Source: Candidatus Woesearchaeota archaeon
GTDB lineage: Archaea > Nanobdellota > Nanobdellia > Pacearchaeales > GW2011-AR1
Reading direction: 5' to 3'
Length of the DNA: 53,072 nucleotides
Assembly (NCBI GenBank): GCA_964598185.1
Contig: CAZRAT010000002.1
Span: forward strand, 3,769-56,840
The translations under genes and the position numbers were made by a program. Below the pieces are notes generated by a model that saw only the letters and a list, made by a program, of their open reading frames with translations, was not told the origin of the DNA and ran no database searches. Shown here one piece after another: positions 388 through 42,775 of the stretch. The stretch's first letter is position 1. Each line of letters opens with the position of its first letter.

Positions 388-558
388 ATGATAAAAAAAG
401 AGGAGATTGTATTTCTTAACCAATTAATTAATACTCTTGAAGAAGCTGATTTAAAACTTGAAGAGAGTTATAATGAAAAAAATTATGAGAACTTTAATAA
501 TATGAAGAAATTAATTATGCAAATTCAAAATAAAATTTCAGGTGTGTTGAATGAATGA
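388..558 (+). CDS. small coiled-coil protein (56 aa), hypothetical
   Basis: ATG at 388 preceded by GGAG. The stop overlaps the ATG of the next gene (ATGAATGA). It is below the ORF-track cutoff and was translated by hand: MIKKEEIVFLNQLINTLEEADLKLEESYNEKNYENFNNMKKLIMQIQNKISGVLNE. Confidence 0.3.
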   Translation: MIKKEEIVFLNQLINTLEEADLKLEESYNEKNYENFNNMKKLIMQIQNKISGVLNE

Positions 559-1831
559 AGAATTAAAAAAAATAATTTTAGAAAAGAAGAATATTCTCAA
601 AGAAATAAGTTCTTTTTCTGGAATATTAGAAAGAACCAAAGACCGTGAAGAAAGAAAAATGATTTCTTCGCAAATTTCTTTATTAGAGGATTTATTGAAG
701 AAAAAAAATAATGATCTCCCTAAAATATTAAAGGAAATGTCCTTGTTAAAACCATTAACTGCTAAAAAAGAAAATGAAAATATTGAATCGGATTTAAAAA
801 AAAGAAAACCTATTAAAGTTTCAAAAAAAGCCAAACTCCCTAGGGATTTTTTAGAACTTGAAAAAGAAACATTAAAACGGATTGGGCAAAAGGAAGAGAA
901 AATTGTAGAAAAGAAAGTGAAAAAACCAAGCAAATATGTCAAGATGGCTAATAAAATTTTTCAGAAGAAATCAAAAACTCTTTCTAAGAAAAAAATATTT
1001 GACTTATTGAAAGTATCTCTTATAAAATCAAATATGCAATTTATTCCTTCAAATTATCTTTCAATAATTTTATTCACTACCTTGCTATCTGTTATTTTTA
1101 GTATATTTATTTTTGTATTTTTTTTATTTTTTAATTTTGGACCTGCACTGCCAATCATAACAAATGTTACTGAAGATATTGGGACAAGATTCTTAAAAAC
1201 ATTCTGGATTTTGATTGTTATTCCTATTGGAACTCTCATCTTCATGTACTTTTATCCTTCACTAGAAAAAAGCTCTATCCAGAATAAAATCAATCGTGAA
1301 CTTCCTTTTGCAACAATTCATATGTCTGCGATTTCAGGCTCGATGGTTGAACCAAGTAAAATTTTTAGCATAATAAATTCAACAGGAGAATATCCTAACA
1401 TTTCAAAAGAATTTACAAAGTTGATAAATGAAACCCATGTTTATGGATATAATTTAGTTAGTGCGATGAGAAATCTTGCGTTTAATAGCCCAAGTTCAAA
1501 ACTCGCAGAATTATTTAATGGTTTAGCTTCCACAATAAGTTCAGGAGGAGACATTCAAGATTTTTTTGAAAAAAGGGCCCAAAGTTTACTCTTTGAATAT
1601 AAAATTGAAAATGAAAAACACACGAAAACTGCAGAAACATTTATGGACATTTACATAAGCCTTGTTATTGCCGCCCCAATGATTTTTATGCTTGTGTTGA
1701 TGATGATGAGAATAAGTGGATTAGGAATCTCTCTGAGCACGTCGATGATTAGTGTTATAATGGTCTCTGGAGTGGCATTAATAAATGTAGTCTTCCTGAC
1801 ATTTTTACATTTAAAACAACCAAACGAATAA
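551..1831 (+). CDS. T2SSF-domain membrane protein (FlaJ/TadB/PilC-like, first half) with a K/E-rich N-terminal extension
   Basis: One T2SSF-like domain (ELPFATIHMSAISGSMVEPSKIF...ELFNGLASTISSGGDIQDFFEKRAQSLL) flanked by TM segments. Confidence 0.7.
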   Translation: MNEELKKIILEKKNILKEISSFSGILERTKDREERKMISSQISLLEDLLKKKNNDLPKILKEMSLLKPLTAKKENENIESDLKKRKPIKVSKKAKLPRDFLELEKETLKRIGQKEEKIVEKKVKKPSKYVKMANKIFQKKSKTLSKKKIFDLLKVSLIKSNMQFIPSNYLSIILFTTLLSVIFSIFIFVFFLFFNFGPALPIITNVTEDIGTRFLKTFWILIVIPIGTLIFMYFYPSLEKSSIQNKINRELPFATIHMSAISGSMVEPSKIFSIINSTGEYPNISKEFTKLINETHVYGYNLVSAMRNLAFNSPSSKLAELFNGLASTISSGGDIQDFFEKRAQSLLFEYKIENEKHTKTAETFMDIYISLVIAAPMIFMLVLMMMRISGLGISLSTSMISVIMVSGVALINVVFLTFLHLKQPNE

Positions 1832-1875
1832 AATGAATAACCCCCCCTAAAGGGTGAGGTATCAATAACTAAAAA

Positions 1876-2463
1876 ATGTTAAAACTAACAAAACCAGGGT
1901 TGAGAAGAAGTAATGTAGTGCTGGACAGCTTCGGTGGTTGTGTTGCCGACGCTCCTAAAGAATTTTCCAGGGCTCCAAAAGTGTCCTTTTCTAAAGTGGT
2001 TTCTCAACCAAGGATGTTTTTTGAAAAGCTTAAAGGCGAAGTAGCCTTTAAACAATTGGAGAGTTTTGCTAACGCTCATGGTTGGGGGTATCTCAACAAA
2101 CAGATGGACATGGTCAACAGCGACGTGAAGTTCATAAATCTTGAATCCTCATCGGTAAGCGACTTGCCTCAAGAAAAATTCACAATCCATTCTGAGCCCG
2201 TAAAACTTGAAAGGGTCTTTGACGTATTTAATTTTCCACACAAAGTGGAATGCGTTTTGTCCGAAGCTATGCTTCCTGGATTTCAAATCCATTTTTTATC
2301 TCCTAAGTCAGCGACGAGAAAGAGAGCTCATGCTAACTTGAACGTTTATTTCGAAGAGCCGAGTATCTCGGCTTTTCCTAATAGTCAAACAAAAGAATTA
2401 AATTTATCGGGAACGGCGATTCCTCCCTGCTTTAAAGCAGTGGTATCCTCGCCGGAGATGTAA
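1876..2463 (+). CDS. hypothetical protein with strongly atypical (GC-rich) composition
   Basis: 195-codon ORF in a ~50% GC island (1841..2460) inside a ~25% GC neighbourhood. It shows a G-rich first codon position. Its stop overlaps the next ATG (TAATG). No family recognised. Confidence 0.5.
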   Translation: MLKLTKPGLRRSNVVLDSFGGCVADAPKEFSRAPKVSFSKVVSQPRMFFEKLKGEVAFKQLESFANAHGWGYLNKQMDMVNSDVKFINLESSSVSDLPQEKFTIHSEPVKLERVFDVFNFPHKVECVLSEAMLPGFQIHFLSPKSATRKRAHANLNVYFEEPSISAFPNSQTKELNLSGTAIPPCFKAVVSSPEM

Positions 2464-3275
2464 TGAAAAAAATATATTGGATCGGATTTACATTGTCGTT
2501 AATAGTCGTGATTTTTTCATTATTTTTTATTGGTACAAAATTTTTCTTTTTTATTTTTGGGGTTGGAATTTTATTAGGTGCTACTCCTTTTGTAATTTTA
2601 ACTATTTATGAAACAAGGGTTGCAAATGAAAAAAGAGAGATGTTCTTAGAGTTTGCTAGAAATCTGGTTGAAAGTGTCCAAACAGGAATACCAATAAGTA
2701 AAAGTATAATTAATGTTAAAGGCAAATCTTATGGTGTATTGAGCGGAAATGTTGAAAAATTAGCCAATCAGATTTCCTTGGGAATTCCATTGAATATTGC
2801 TTTAGAAATATTTTCAAAGGACGTTAATAATCAAAACATTTCAAGGGCATTAAAATTAATCGGACAGGCAGAAAAAGCAGGAGGGGACATTGGCGAGATA
2901 CTTGAAGCTGTTGCTGAAGCAGTTAATATGACAAATAAATTAAAAATAGAGAGAAAGGCAACAATATCAACATTAGTTGTTCAAGGTTATATTATTTTCT
3001 TTGTATTTATAGTGATTATTTTAATCATGCAATTCAAAATACTTCCGATGCTTTCTAATATAACTCTTGTTGAATCAATTGGGTCAGGTGAGACTATCGA
3101 TCAGGAGACAATAGCTAATTCATTTTTGTATCTGCTTTTGATTCAGGGGTTTTTTAATGGTTTAACAATTGGGAAACTTTCCGAGGGGAATGCTAAATCA
3201 GGGATAAAACATTCATTTGCTCTAATGATACTTTCTTTCTTTGTTTCTATAGGGTCAGGAATATTTTTTGGATAG
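2463..3275 (+). CDS. T2SSF-domain membrane protein (FlaJ/TadC/PilC-like, second half)
   Basis: T2SSF-like domain (GIPISKSIINV...LGIPLNIALEIFSKD...QAEKAGGDIGEILEAVAEAV) with N- and C-terminal TM helices. Confidence 0.7.
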   Translation: MKKIYWIGFTLSLIVVIFSLFFIGTKFFFFIFGVGILLGATPFVILTIYETRVANEKREMFLEFARNLVESVQTGIPISKSIINVKGKSYGVLSGNVEKLANQISLGIPLNIALEIFSKDVNNQNISRALKLIGQAEKAGGDIGEILEAVAEAVNMTNKLKIERKATISTLVVQGYIIFFVFIVIILIMQFKILPMLSNITLVESIGSGETIDQETIANSFLYLLLIQGFFNGLTIGKLSEGNAKSGIKHSFALMILSFFVSIGSGIFFG

Positions 3276-5564: not shown

Positions 5565-6989
5565 ATGAAACCAAAAAAAATACAAAAGAATGTTTATGAA
5601 ATTCCAAAACAAGGGAAGATGTTGGTTCCTGGAAGAATTTTCATTTCTGAAAAAATGGTTATGGAAGAAGAAGCCCTGAAACAAATTTCAAATGTGGCGC
5701 AACTACCAGGTATTTTAAAATATTCTATTGGAGTTGCAGATATGCATGTTGGTTATGGTTTTCCAATTGGTGGAATTGCTGCTTTTGACATGGACAAAGG
5801 AATTATTTCTCCTGGAGGAGTTGGTTATGATATTAATTGTTCTGTAAGATTATTAAAAACAAATCTAAAGAAAAAAGATGTTCTTTTAAAACAAAAAGAA
5901 ATTGTGGAAAGTCTTTTTAGAAAGATTCCTTCTGGAGTTGGCAGGGGAAGCAGATTTCAAATTACTAGAAAAGAACTTGCAAAACTTTTAGAGCAGGGGG
6001 CAAAATATATGGTGGATAAAGGTTATGGGGAAAAACAGGATTATCTGCATACTGAAGAAGAGGGGTGTATGAAAGAGGCAGATGCTTCAAAAGTTTCAGA
6101 GCGTGCAATTAAAAGAGGTATTGGGCAACTTGGAACTTTGGGTGCAGGAAATCATTTTTTAGAAGTGCAATATGTTGATGAAATTTTTGATGAGAAAATT
6201 GCTAAAGTATTTGGGTTGGAAAAAAACCAAATTACGATAATGGTGCATTGTGGTTCTCGGGGTTTGGGGCATCAAGTTGCTTCTGATTATATTAAAAAAA
6301 TGGAAGACGAATATGGAATAAAGAATTTACCAGATAGAGAATTAATTAATGCTCCGATAAAAAGCAAGTTAGGGAAGGACTATTTTTCTGCTATGGCTGC
6401 TGCTGCGAATTTCGCTTTTGCAAACAAGCAATTAATTACACATTGGATAAGAGAAGAAATGAAATATCTTTTTCCAAAAATAAAAATTGATGTTGTTTAT
6501 GATGTTTGTCACAATATTGCAAAATTTGAAGAGCATGTTGTTAATACCATAAATGGCACGAGTGGGAAGAAAAAAATAGTTTGCGTTCATAGAAAAGGTG
6601 CGACGCGTAGTTTTGGTGCTGGACGAAAAGAAGTTCCTGAAAGGTATAGAAAAGTTGGGCAGCCAGTAATTGTTCCAGGGAGCATGGGAACGTCGAGTTA
6701 TGTCCTGGTTGGGACAAAAAAAGCAGAAGAATTAACTTGGGGTTCAACGGTTCATGGGGCTGGGAGAGTTTCGAGCAGAAAGGCTGCTCTAAAAAAATTA
6801 AGAGGTGAAGATGTAAAAAAGAAATTGAACAAAATGGGAATTGAAGTTAAATCAGGAAGTTATAAATCATTAGCACAAGAAGCACCAGAAGTTTACAAAG
6901 ATGTTGATGAAGTTGTAAAAGTTGTTGATGAATTAGGAATCAGTAAGAAAGTAGCGAGGCTGAAACCATTGTGTGTTGTTAAAGGGTGA
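5565..6989 (+). CDS. rtcB: RNA 3-prime-phosphate/tRNA-splicing ligase RtcB
   Basis: GYDINCSVR, GAGNHFLEVQ, HCGSRGLGHQ, HRKGATR and PGSMGTSSY motifs. 474 aa, no intein. Confidence 0.95.
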   Translation: MKPKKIQKNVYEIPKQGKMLVPGRIFISEKMVMEEEALKQISNVAQLPGILKYSIGVADMHVGYGFPIGGIAAFDMDKGIISPGGVGYDINCSVRLLKTNLKKKDVLLKQKEIVESLFRKIPSGVGRGSRFQITRKELAKLLEQGAKYMVDKGYGEKQDYLHTEEEGCMKEADASKVSERAIKRGIGQLGTLGAGNHFLEVQYVDEIFDEKIAKVFGLEKNQITIMVHCGSRGLGHQVASDYIKKMEDEYGIKNLPDRELINAPIKSKLGKDYFSAMAAAANFAFANKQLITHWIREEMKYLFPKIKIDVVYDVCHNIAKFEEHVVNTINGTSGKKKIVCVHRKGATRSFGAGRKEVPERYRKVGQPVIVPGSMGTSSYVLVGTKKAEELTWGSTVHGAGRVSSRKAALKKLRGEDVKKKLNKMGIEVKSGSYKSLAQEAPEVYKDVDEVVKVVDELGISKKVARLKPLCVVKG

Positions 6990-30472: not shown

Positions 30473-30588
30473 GGGCCCATAGTCCAATGGCTTAAGATAC
30501 TTCCCTTGCACGGAATAAGATGTGGAACATTATCACGTCTTTATTCCAAAGAACGGAAGAGGTCCGTGTTCGATTCACGGTGGGTCCA
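30473..30588 (+). tRNA. tRNA-Ala(UGC) with a 43-nt intron at 37/38 (30511..30553)
   Basis: Acceptor GGGCCCA/TGGGTCC with G3:U70, anticodon stem CTTCC/GGAAG, loop CTTGCA-C, T arm CCGTG-TTCGATT-CACGG. The intron forms a GGAATAAGA/TCTTTATTCC hairpin. Confidence 0.9.
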
Positions 30589-31480: not shown

Positions 31481-32850
31481 AATCCCACTAGTTTGTATTA
31501 AAATACAAACTAATGACGGAAGGTTTTCAATTTATTGAAAACTTTTAAACAAATTAATTCTTAGACATACTACTAATTTATACTGTTAGACAGATAGCTT
31601 GGTTTTGGTTATGATGAAGGACGTGGCAAGCTGCGATAAGCTTGGGGGAGCTGCATGCAAGCTTTGATCCCAAGATTTCTGAATTATTCCGAGAGGAAAA
31701 AATACGCCGGGAATTGAAACATCTTAGTACCGGCAGGAAAAGAAAACAATAGTGATGCCCTTATTAGCAGCGAGCGAAAAGGGCCCGGGGCAATCTGAAT
31801 CTTCTCTTGAAAGAGAGATAGAAATGTGGTGAGGATAAACAGCTAAGTCGACGAGTCAAAGTGAACTGGAAAGTTCCACCTTAGAAGGTGATAGTCCTGT
31901 AGACTAAATCGATACACTGTTCCTCGACGAGTAGGGCTTCCTGGATTGGAGGTCTGAATACGGCGGGATTAACCGCCAACCCTAAATAAAACCAAAGTCC
32001 GATAGCGCACTAGTACCGCGAGGGAAAGCTGAAAAGTACTCTTAACAGAGGTTGAAAAGACTTGAAATCTAACAGTTACAGTTTGTTACTGCTCTATTCA
32101 CTTTAGTGTGGAAGGGTTGTAACGTACGTTTTGAAGAACGGGCCAGGGAGTTTTTCTATATGGCGAGGCTAATCAATTATATTGAGTAACCGAAGCGAAA
32201 GCAAGTGTGAAAGCGCGCGAGTCATATGGATAAGACCTGAAGCCAGATGATCTATTTATGGGCAAGCTGAAGTCTTTCGAAAGGAGGATGGAGGGCTGAA
32301 CCGGTGTTGTGGACATGCACTCGAATGACCTGTGAATAGGGGTGAAAAGCTTATCTAATCTGGCGATGGCTGGTTCCTGCTGAAATATGCCTACGTATAG
32401 TCTTGTGTAGTTTGTTGGCGGTGTAAAGTACGGATAAATCTTGCAGGAGCTAATGCTTACGGAGATTTTTCCAACTCAGAAACTGTTAACTGCGTAGCAC
32501 AAGAATCAGGTGCAGTATGTAAGATACTGTTCCGAGAGTGGAACAACACAGACCAGAGTTAAGGTCCCAAAATTTATGCTAAGTGTATCAAAAGGCGTCT
32601 TGAACCTGAGACACCGGGGATGTAAGCTTAGAAGCAGCTATCATTTAAAGAAAGCGTAACAGCTCACCCATCGAGGTTCAGGGCCCTGAAAATGGACGGG
32701 GCTAAGCATAATACCGATACTTTGGAGGCATTCGGTTTAAAATTAATATAGGTAAAATAAAAATTTTATCTGTCGTATAAAAAAGATATTTAATACGAGT
32801 GGGATTTTGATGTTGAGGATTTTTGTTTTAACTTAGAAGTTAAGACCAAT

Positions 32851-32866
32851 GGGAAGGTTTATAAAT
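32851..32866 (+). promoter_or_regulatory. BRE/TATA promoter inside the 23S insertion (GGGAAGGTTTATAAAT)
   Basis: ~25 nt upstream of the ATG at 32887. Confidence 0.5.
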
Positions 32867-32886
32867 GTTATAGATTAAGAGAAGTT

Positions 32887-33162
32887 ATGGAAAATAAAGA
32901 TGAACTAAGTCACCTTCGTTGTTATTGGACACGACCGTTTGGACATATCTGGAAAGAAGGCCAAACTTCTTATGAAAGAAATTGTGTACTTTGCAACCAA
33001 GATAGTATTAAAGGAAATTATGATGGAGGCTGGCATTATGACTTAGATGTTCATTATGATGAACTAACAGGAGGTCAAAAAGCTAGAACCTTGACTGAAA
33101 AACATCAGGCAAGAGCACTAAGAGCTTTAGACAAAAAGAAAAAAAGACTAAAAATTTCTTGA
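32887..33162 (+). CDS. small Cys/His-containing basic protein encoded in the 23S insertion (not LAGLIDADG)
   Basis: 91 aa. HLRC...H...CVLC pattern and a basic tail KKKKRLKIS. Followed by the hairpin TTCGTCAAAAACGAA. Confidence 0.45.
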   Translation: MENKDELSHLRCYWTRPFGHIWKEGQTSYERNCVLCNQDSIKGNYDGGWHYDLDVHYDELTGGQKARTLTEKHQARALRALDKKKKRLKIS

Positions 33163-33993
33163 AGACCCTTTTAAAATAATTCTTCACACTCACTCAAATT
33201 CGTCAAAAACGAATTTTCACAAATCATATTCAATTTTTCTCAACATCAAAATCTAATATTATTAATATAGAATGTTCTAGTAAGCAGGCGTACTATTTGC
33301 GCAGAAGTTTTTTCGAGAGAAAGAGTGGAGCGAATAGTAATGAGAATCCTGGTAAGAGTAGGATGTGATTATTCTGAGAATGAATAAGGTCGAAAGGGTA
33401 AGGTTTCCTTGGCAATATCGTTTAGCTAAGGGTTAGTCAGCACCTAAGTCGTATCTTAACTGAGTACGACGATGGATATCAGGTTAATATTCCTGGACTA
33501 ATTAAATCTTATATAATATAATTTGCTTTCGGATAGGCATGCAGGTGAAAGCCTGTTTTAACGAGAAATCTGTTGAGGGTAATCCTAAGATGCAGATGAA
33601 TTTTTGAATTGCTGCTGACTCCAAGAGCCAGTGAAAAGATTATACTAATGTTTCTTGCTTGCAAGAGACGTCCCAAAAAGTTGCAAAACTTTTTGGTGTT
33701 GATTTAATTAGCTGTACCCACAACCGACACTGGTGCCCAGGCTTAGTAGGCCAAGACCTGAAAGGTAAAACCAATTAAGGGAATTCGGCAAGTTAGTCCT
33801 GTAGCTTCGGCTGAAGGGATGTCTACCTTTGTGTGCTTAGTAATATGTGTGCATTGTTAGATCTCAGTAACAAGGATGGCCCGACTGTTTACCAAAAACG
33901 TAGCCAAGTGCTAATCTGAAAAGACTTGTATACTTGGTGAGACCTGCCCAGTGGTGGTGTCTAAAACTCCTTTTCAAGGGAGCTAAGGTCCAT

Positions 33994-34028
<35 letters not shown>

Positions 34029-35021
34029 ACGTAATACCTTGTCGTATGAATTGCGACTTGCATGAATGGTTTAACGAGGTTGTCACTGTCCCTAATTGGA
34101 GCCTTCCGAACATATCTTCCGGTGAATAGACCGGAGACACCTAGTGGGAAGCGTAGACCTTGTGGAACTTTACTGCAACTTGTTGTTGTAATTTTATAAG
34201 AAATGCATAGCATAGGTAGGAGCGTCGAAGTCGTCATTTTGGTGACGATGGAGCGAACTTGTAATACTACCCATTTTTTATAGAATTGCTTACCATTTAT
34301 GGGACAGCAGCAGGCGGGCAGTTTGGCTGGGGCGGCACCCTGTCGAAAAGATATCGATAGGACCCAAAGACAAGCTCATCCAGCTTGGAAATCTGGAGTT
34401 GAGTGCGAAGGCAAAAGCTTGTCTGACTGTTTTTTGAAAAGCAAGAAAAGCAGGAGCGAAAGCTGGGCTTAGTGAACCCACGTGCTTTTTTAATAGAAGC
34501 CGTGTCTGATAGAAAAGTTACCCCAAGGATAATTGGCTTGTCTCCCCCGATAGTCCGAATTGACGGGGAGGTTTGGTACACCGCTGTCGGCTCTCCCTAT
34601 CCTGCGCGTGCAGAAGCGTGCAAGGGTGCCGGAGTTCACGTATTAAAAGGGATCGTTAGCTGGGTTAAGAACGTCGCGAGACAGTTTGTATGATATCTAC
34701 TAGGTGTGTTATTGTCTGAGTGGAACAAGTTTCCAGTACGAGAGGAACGGAACTTGGTTGCCTCTGGTGAGCAGTTGTCAATTGGCAGGCTGCATAGCTA
34801 CGCAATGTGTGGATAAGAGCTGAATGCATCTAAGCTCGAAGCCATCCGCAAAACGAGACAATTAAGGCCGTCAAAGAAGATGACGTTGATAGAGTTCTTG
34901 TGTAAGATTGAAGGTTCGCCGACAATTTCAGCATAGAACTACTAATAGCCTCCATGTATTATTCTAAGAATTACTTCTACTGCTTATTTTGTTTGATTTA
35001 ATCTTAAAGTAGTTACATCAT

Positions 35022-42383: not shown

Positions 42384-42775
42384 TGTAAGTCAGGTAGTTA
42401 ACTTCGGGACTTTGATATTAGATTATCAAGAAGTCAAGATATGATTTCTAAGCCCTGCGGAAGGTCCGGACACTATAAAGACTGTCAGGGAAATCCTGGT
42501 TGCTGTGAAGCAAAGCTCTGTTACAGAAACGCCACAGCCTTATCATGGCAAGAGGGAAACCTCAAGCCGTCGTCCGAAATTTCAGTTTCGAACGAGAGTA
42601 ATGAACCTTGCGGGGAACGTCGACGATAAGGATTTGATGAAACGGGCATCTCGGTCAGTGCAAGTCTAAGACGCATAGTTGAATGTTAACACGTTTGGTC
42701 TGGCCCCTTTTTGGGGCATGACATCCTAAAGGAGGCCTCAGCGAACGACAGAATCTGGCCTATTCCTGACTTACA
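42384..42775 (+). ncRNA. rnpB: RNase P RNA
   Basis: P1 TGTAAGTCAGG / CCTGACTTACA. GCGGAAGGTCCGGACAC (CR-I-like), GTTACAGAAACGCCACAGCC, AGAGGGAAACC, GACAGAATCTGGCCTAT (CR-V-like). GC-rich island. Confidence 0.8.

Follow-up and report, generated by a model that had tools for sequence, protein, structure and literature searches.

An IS200-group insertion sequence at the start codon of a pilus gene in a DPANN archaeon, and its open antisense frame

IS608 and ISDra2 serve as the mechanistic paradigms of the IS200/IS605 family of insertion sequences (ISs). In the IS200 group of this family (TnpA subclass 1.1), the transposase is a Y1 HUH enzyme whose catalytic signature comprises the HuH motif (DH[VI]H), a W[TS] motif, and the tyrosine motif Y[IV]ENQ; the architecture of the family, including its subterminal hairpins, has been described (Quentin et al. 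2018, PMC6006769). Members of the group carry tnpA only, have subterminal hairpins at both ends without inverted repeats, insert 3' of a short fixed target at the left end without duplicating it, and occur in multiple and in tandem copies. The archaeal representatives include the IS200-type transposases of Sulfolobales with solved structures (PDB 2EC2 and 2F4F). The bacterial element ISGst5 of Geobacillus stearothermophilus, which comes with an IscB nuclease and a guide RNA, has the target/TAM 5'-TTCAT-3' flanking its left end (Meers et al., bioRxiv 10.1101/2023.03.14.532601). In the literature, no precedent was found for start-codon targeting or for antisense frames in IS200 elements, and only the TTCAT target of ISGst5 proved relevant.

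The stretch of DNA analysed here (the window; 53,072 nt from a Candidatus Woesearchaeota archaeon) carries a GC-rich island between two host genes of a pilus locus, each of which encodes exactly one T2SSF domain according to domain searches. The first-pass annotation had read this island as a foreign 195-codon gene. The DNA between the two T2SSF genes is indeed foreign and inserted, but the plus-strand reading frame is not the gene; the actual gene lies on the minus strand and codes for a transposase of the IS200 type. Positions 1833 to 2462 are very probably an IS200-group IS that sits at a start codon and carries tnpA on the minus strand, between T2SSF genes that were already separate, with an antisense frame that does not serve as a protein. 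The features of the element and its neighbours are as follows.

1833..2462, minus strand: complete IS200-group insertion sequence, 630 bp, tnpA only (nhmmer and empty sites)
1885..2292, minus strand (read 2292..1885): tnpA, a Y1 HUH transposase gene of 135 codons, a pseudogene in this copy (Pfam, NCBIfam, and PDB)
2298..2303, minus strand: Shine-Dalgarno-like GGAGAT, 5 nt upstream of the tnpA ATG (conserved in the 18-copy alignment)
1876..2463, plus strand: 195-codon antisense ORF, its codon position 2 facing tnpA codon position 2 (frame open across the family)
551..1831, plus strand: host gene, N-half-like FlaJ/TadB-type, one T2SSF domain (domain searches and empty sites)
2463..3275, plus strand: host gene, C-half-like FlaJ/TadC-type, one T2SSF domain, intact, its ATG being the IS target (domain searches and homologues)

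An nhmmer profile made from 15 copies aligns with 2462..1833, covering model positions 1–617 (E=3e-195), and the junction found in the relatives L110–L112 is regained when 1833–2462 is excised, so that the island limits of 1841..2460 given earlier have to be moved outward. The compositional island is present at the earlier coordinates, but its GC content is 41.8% over 1841..2460 rather than about 50%, against 28.4% and 30.5% in the flanking genes and 32.1% in the whole window. The G+C counts of 31 and 13 in two 60-nt lines were correct on recount, and the C7 run lies at 1841–1847.

When the ORFs of two further loci were listed, a minus-strand ORF of 135 aa came to light that bears the marks of an IS200 transposase, and in the window this frame runs antisense to the flanking host genes. 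It matches Pfam Y1_Tnp (PF01797) with E=1.4e-26 and NCBIfam transpos_IS200 (NF033573) with 107 bits against a cut-off of 55, and has relatives in the PDB (2EC2, 2F4F, 2XM3, and 2A6M). The best solved-structure matches are the Sulfolobales transposases 2EC2 and 2F4F, which align over the full length (E=7e-14 and 1e-12) with moderate sequence similarity, in a comparison made on protein only. The motifs DHVH, DHIH, and WS are present, and the catalytic tyrosine resides in HYITSSQ, where the glutamine lies one residue further from the tyrosine than in Y[IV]ENQ. Hardly anything else speaks against the IS identification. The GGAGAT upstream of the start codon may function as a Shine-Dalgarno sequence. 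Averaged over 3003 pairs of copies, the nucleotide sequences are 80.7% identical, the TnpA proteins 86.6%, and the antisense proteins 59.3%, and variability by tnpA codon position is 0.29/0.17/0.91 bits; together these values identify tnpA as a gene under purifying selection. The tnpA frame is intact in 75 of 78 copies. As a member of the IS200 group, the element is predicted to move as single-stranded DNA.

Apart from the tyrosine motif, the element shares with the IS200 group the traits listed above, and homologous TnpA proteins have already been named by NCBI; it is of an ordinary kind, a new IS200-group member that resides in DPANN archaea. It differs from the group in being at the small end of the family (606–640 bp among 81 unique full-length copies), in its tyrosine motif YITSSQ in place of Y[IV]ENQ, in its DPANN archaeal hosts, in its insertion site, which is almost always a host start codon, and in the antisense frame that runs along the whole element. 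With ISGst5 it has in common the TTCAT pentanucleotide at the left end, but neither tnpB nor iscB is seen in its longest frames, which are tnpA and the antisense ORF and beside which it has eight further frames of 20–44 codons.

The anatomy of the element was derived from an alignment of 18 copies with their flanks, and 80 more loci were gathered with a TnpA query, which is blind to the antisense ORF, followed by a search with the nhmmer profile. The first 23 genomic loci, mostly at contig ends and two or three per metagenome-assembled genome (MAG), show 73–90% nucleotide identity and 44–77% protein identity in the plus-strand ORF. The proteins neighbouring the element in the window gave no tblastn match in these 23 loci, which indicates that the element is not tied to the pilus locus. 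Its mobility is apparent from 81 unique flank pairs in Pacearchaeota, Woesearchaeota, and Nanoarchaeota, with 2–3 copies in single MAGs; the occurrence of the same element in 81 unrelated loci disposes of the suggestion that a foreign gene had been recruited as a pilus accessory. Within the window itself, neither further copies nor MITE-like derivatives were found (blastn with word size 7; nhmmer --max, E<=100), and the other short GC-rich patches of the window show no similarity to the element ends; the kinship proposed earlier with short GC-rich in-frame insertions thus finds no support even in a sensitive profile search.

The closest relatives of the window's proteins are named Pacearchaeota or Nanoarchaeota. 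In the left-end flank of locus L082, two copies are arranged in direct tandem, and the right-end TTCAT of one copy is the target of the next. In a Woesearchaeota MAG (L007:5447-7076), a copy lies between rpS13 and rpS4, antisense to the operon, with both genes intact. A bin whose name, Candidatus Magasanikbacteria, refers to a CPR bacterium (L119) contains a TnpA 76% identical to that of the element family, which reflects either cross-domain spread or a binning error.

The ends of the element and the adjoining target comprise the following features.

1833..1837, minus strand: right-end terminal pentanucleotide TTCAT (ATGAA on the plus strand), the predicted right cleavage site (the last 5 nt in 70 of 81 copies)
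1841..1863, minus strand: right-end subterminal hairpin with GATACC before it (covariation)
2414..2454, minus strand: left-end bipartite hairpin (compensatory changes in both stems, 66 distinct rows)
2458..2462, minus strand: left-end terminus TACAT (the first 5 nt in 99% of 81 copies)
2463..2467, minus strand: host target TTCAT, outside the IS; on the plus strand it reads ATGAA, with which the downstream T2SSF gene starts (flanks and empty sites)

Read in the orientation of tnpA, the element starts with TACATCC and finishes with ...GGGGTTATTCAT, after which TTT follows; the ends TACATCC... and ...TTATTCAT are devoid of terminal inverted repeats. The left-end hairpin consists of an outer stem, CGGCGA/TCGCCG, and an inner stem with a TTTAAA loop. 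The right-end hairpin is supported by covariation, including CG/GC swaps, across 69 distinct rows, and the sole gapped pair is that of the window copy. Two end motifs at 1850–1863 and 2442–2453, which had been noted as weakly similar, are real and related: both hold GATACC on the minus strand, a sequence that precedes the hairpins of both the right and the left end and at the left end lies inside the bipartite structure. No convincing rule for guide pairing between GATACC and TTCAT could be discerned by eye.

Positions -3 to -1 of the left-end flank read CAT in 99–100% of copies, TTCAT is present in 54 of 75 flanks, and TTCAT or YCAT precedes the left end in all 75. A host ORF of at least 50 codons begins at the target ATG in 50 of 62 copies, and independent gene calls bear out the start-codon position in three more loci; among the ATGAA sites of the window, 18 of 260 are ORF starts. 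On the other side, the three host bases 3' of the right end (window 1830–1832) are TTT in 94–97% of copies. By a rough estimate, AAA precedes about 40–50% of host ATGAA starts (50/137 raw; about 44% after adjustment for element junctions), and as the flanking TTT is commoner than this, the target preference may extend past TTCAT. The right-end flanks often read GGAG-N-AAA, a ribosome-binding site that now faces the element's right-end ATGAA.

Empty sites reveal a clean 630-bp insertion without target duplication, and they also settle the state of the host genes before the insertion. In relatives, the site reads ...GAATAAT/ATGAAAAAA... (the slash marks the insertion point); element-free relatives, whose T2SSF proteins are 84–91% identical, read ...CAACCAAGTGAATAAT/ATGAAAAAAATATATTGG..., and the window without 1833–2462 reads ...CAACCAAACGAATAAA/ATGAAAAAAATATATTGG.... 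The two T2SSF genes were separate before the insertion, the site being the 1-nt gap between them, and both host reading frames are intact after it. Synteny of the pilus locus in these relatives, which had been proposed as a check, thus bears directly on the earlier suggestion that an insertion had split an ancestral fused two-domain FlaJ/PilC gene. The two halves do align to positions 11–249 and 267–541 of the 555-position ArlJ model, as a split would lead one to expect, but the element-free relatives have two genes, with TAA, 1 nt, and ATG at the same point; the upstream TAA (1829–1831) is host DNA that falls outside the element by the nhmmer bounds and the empty sites; and the best 120 homologues of the downstream protein are all single-domain proteins of 264–289 aa. 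A chimeric assembly junction, the other way in which the arrangement could be artefactual, draws on the fact that contigs often break inside the element, yet such breaks are expected from a multicopy repeat, and the IS and its junction are identical in 5 retrieved spanning contigs of 24 contigs read, which excludes a chimeric junction. Either a split gene or a chimera has virtually no chance of being correct. Further along the window, the RtcB gene (5565-6989; 474 aa) is free of an intein, and in a close relative it contains one (L112:5151-5816; 960-aa product).

The copy in the window is a decaying relic and, judging from its sequence, is probably non-autonomous. Its tnpA frame is interrupted by one feature.

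2149..2151, minus strand: tnpA codon 48, here a TGA in frame, the nonsense mutation being derived (CGA, Arg, in L107)

The same population also contains a sister copy that is intact (contig L107), and at codon 48 it has CGA (Arg), while the other copies have K, Q, or R. Compared with L107 and the family consensus, the TnpA of the window carries the substitutions A24V, S85F, and V134F, and Ser85 is invariant in the other copies. The right-end hairpin of the window copy has lost one base pair, which gave rise to the C7 run, whereas the right-end stem of the sister copy is intact, with the arms CCCCGCCC and GGGCGAGG. The two copies differ by nine substitutions, and at eight of these the window has A/T and L107 has G/C. 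In contig L107 (1-1443), the IS copy, whose tnpA is intact and whose upstream gene is a different one, is joined to the downstream T2SSF gene of the window; the contig is either an assembly chimera formed across the repeat or the product of a genuine recombination between two copies.

The plus-strand ORF at 1876..2463 exists as described earlier, with 195 aa and a TAA that overlaps the ATG of the downstream gene (TAATG at 2461–2465), but the protein-like periodicity ascribed to it is a property of the minus-strand tnpA, since the most variable site of the plus-strand ORF is its codon position 1. At least 261 database clusters carry this ORF with 55–76% identity, all of them unnamed; the frame is open in all 78 copies, with stops avoided; and source pipelines annotate it instead of tnpA. 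All of this is what a genuine protein gene, whether a pilus accessory or an overlapping IS-encoded protein, would display, but such a gene is very improbable on the remaining evidence. The identity of the ORF product (59%) is far below nucleotide identity (81%) in 99.8% of pairs, and codon position 1 varies most. Beyond tnpA, 3-periodicity is absent (0.70/0.70/0.65 bits by codon position), and the C-terminus is read in different frames between copies. Many of the changes among homologues resemble frameshifts or single transitions, and conservation extends upstream of the ATG. The product has no match at or above the curated cut-offs in Pfam, NCBIfam, or PHROGs; a structure prediction, suggested earlier as a check, yielded no confident fold (AlphaFold2 with a 23-row alignment; pLDDT 30.8, pTM 0.15); and the 81 loci that carry the ORF have no link to a pilus. 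The 195-codon ORF is the antisense frame of tnpA, and it does not encode a protein whose amino acids are under selection.

The island was also considered as the gene of a structured non-coding RNA, rich in GC like the rRNAs and RNase P RNA of this AT-rich genome, given that the GC content of the island is similar to that of rRNA, that nucleotide identity exceeds the protein identity of the plus-strand ORF, and that folding of both strands gives z-scores of -3.2 and -2.5. The tnpA reading frame and the purifying selection on it refute this reading, the probability of which is negligible: substitutions are 3-periodic as tnpA coding predicts, tnpA is intact in nearly all copies, no Rfam match is found even at E<=10, and the stable hairpins are situated at the ends and in the 5' leader, in accordance with IS200/IS605 architecture.

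Elsewhere, the window contains an rRNA operon and a gene for RNase P RNA. The LSU rRNA (31566-34963, especially 32400-33700) measures 3398 nt against a 2987-nt model, and some 490 additional bases, richer in AT, fall between model positions 957 and 1768; these bases contain a 91-aa ORF (32887-33162) without a Pfam match, and the extra segment may be an insertion or an intron. Between the 16S and 23S genes, a 116-nt Rfam tRNA match (30473-30588; 46 bits), absent from the ARAGORN output, is probably an intron-containing spacer tRNA. The RNase P RNA (42389-42770) is 382 nt long against a 288-position model, scores 95.5 bits, just above the gathering threshold of 84, and may be an expanded or divergent form.

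Although the antisense frame does not encode a protein under selection, it is kept stop-free and in phase across the subfamily, as shown statistically. In the overlap with tnpA, none of the 78 copies of the TnpA-selected sample has a stop in this frame, whereas the two remaining antisense frames contain 8 and 12 on average. TTA, CTA, and TCA are the only sense codons that yield antisense stops, and these three are absent from 26 codon columns comprising 934 codons; of 51 control NYN columns, 29 contain A-ending codons (Fisher p=1.5e-7), as do all 40 columns of the other R-ending families (p=2e-11 in comparison with TTR). In the left-end region, which lies outside tnpA and spans 146–176 nt, the frame is stop-free in 59 of 78 copies and the other two frames never are; stops in it are 5–10 times rarer here than would be expected from the column frequencies, with which the other frames agree. 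The length of this region is 2 mod 3 in 66 of 78 copies, distributed over nine length classes, and the right-end region of the same copies exhibits no such periodicity. The antisense ORF ends in TA/A on the host ATG (the slash marking the element boundary) in 59 of 78 copies and ends within 29 nt of it in all 78. The absence of 3-periodicity in the left-end region, together with the low AlphaFold2 confidence, indicates that it is the frame that is constrained and not the protein.

A further short frame starts at the right end.

1833..1850, plus strand: five-codon mini-ORF from the right-end terminal ATG (cut short by the 1-nt hairpin deletion)

In 72 of 78 copies, this mini-ORF either is the main antisense ORF or ends no more than 10 nt from its ATG; in the window copy, which is an exception, the gap measures 25 nt. 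Such a relay is judged to be largely forced by the short AT-rich spacer, and it is given little weight.

Long antisense ORFs in which codon position 2 faces position 2 are a known statistical phenomenon, and like other "shadow" ORFs the frame described here lies opposite a real gene, is longer than that gene, and is called for this reason. The open frame could accordingly be a by-product of GC content, avoidance of TA, T-rich third positions, and common descent, with neither selection nor function behind it. The GC content of the IS above that of the host in 64 of 65 copies and the rarity of ATA and GTA in tnpA are in line with such a by-product, and the latter suggests that the avoidance of stops may partly be a general avoidance of TA. 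This explanation is nevertheless unlikely in the face of the column-wise tests against matched control codon families, of a phase held across nine length classes in a region that does not code for TnpA, and of the deficit of stops confined to one frame of that region. The sample, moreover, amounts to 68 clusters at 95% identity with variable third positions, and sister subfamilies of the same architecture do have stops: in those whose TnpA is 65–67% identical and which share target and ends, the open stretch of the antisense frame amounts to no more than 76 or 126 codons. What sets the frame described here apart from an ordinary shadow ORF is that it continues for some 170 nt past the real gene, stays in phase despite indels, and shows a stronger avoidance of stops than the matched controls.

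We propose tentatively, from the sequence comparisons, that such a constrained frame might serve as a translational pass-through, by which expression of the host gene downstream would be maintained. The element would target the start-codon motif ATGAA and form this motif anew with its own right end, beside the displaced ribosome-binding site of the host gene. Ribosomes would load at this displaced site and the right-end ATGAA, translate through the element along the antisense frame into a product unconstrained in its amino acids, terminate at TAATG on the host ATG, and then re-initiate, so that the insertion would be nearly non-polar and tolerated in compact genomes. Translational coupling at TAATG or ATGA is found in prokaryotic operons, and the antisense ORF ends in just this way in most copies; unlike the usual coupling of two host genes, the upstream "gene" would here be the antisense frame of an IS. 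Two conserved runs of T5–6 on the host-sense strand, which could terminate archaeal transcription, argue against the pass-through, as do the sister subfamilies, which use the start-codon target without an open antisense frame and from which it follows that the open frame is not indispensable. Alternatively, the TTTAAA loop of the left-end hairpin, some 29 nt upstream of the host ATG, could serve as an outward-facing TATA box and give rise to a leaderless host mRNA. With these points weighed, it is possible, though somewhat doubtful, that this IS200 subfamily of DPANN archaea has evolved to be translationally transparent.

The identification of the element removes a false "novel pilus gene" and leaves the pilus locus intact apart from a decaying IS between two of its genes. 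At least 261 clusters of "hypothetical" proteins turn out to be antisense shadows of an IS200 transposase, annotated on the wrong strand because gene finders pick the longer frame, and in the contigs of the window's organism the transposase is not called at all. The combination of an antisense frame that is conserved but unconstrained in its product with the targeting of start codons is worth following up. If the pass-through proposal is true, selection would act on the openness of the frame rather than on its product, and a mobile element would limit its own harm by start-codon targeting and read-through by host ribosomes, lowering the cost of insertion in very compact genomes; this would help to explain the persistence of ISs in the operons of streamlined DPANN genomes, including a ribosomal-protein operon.
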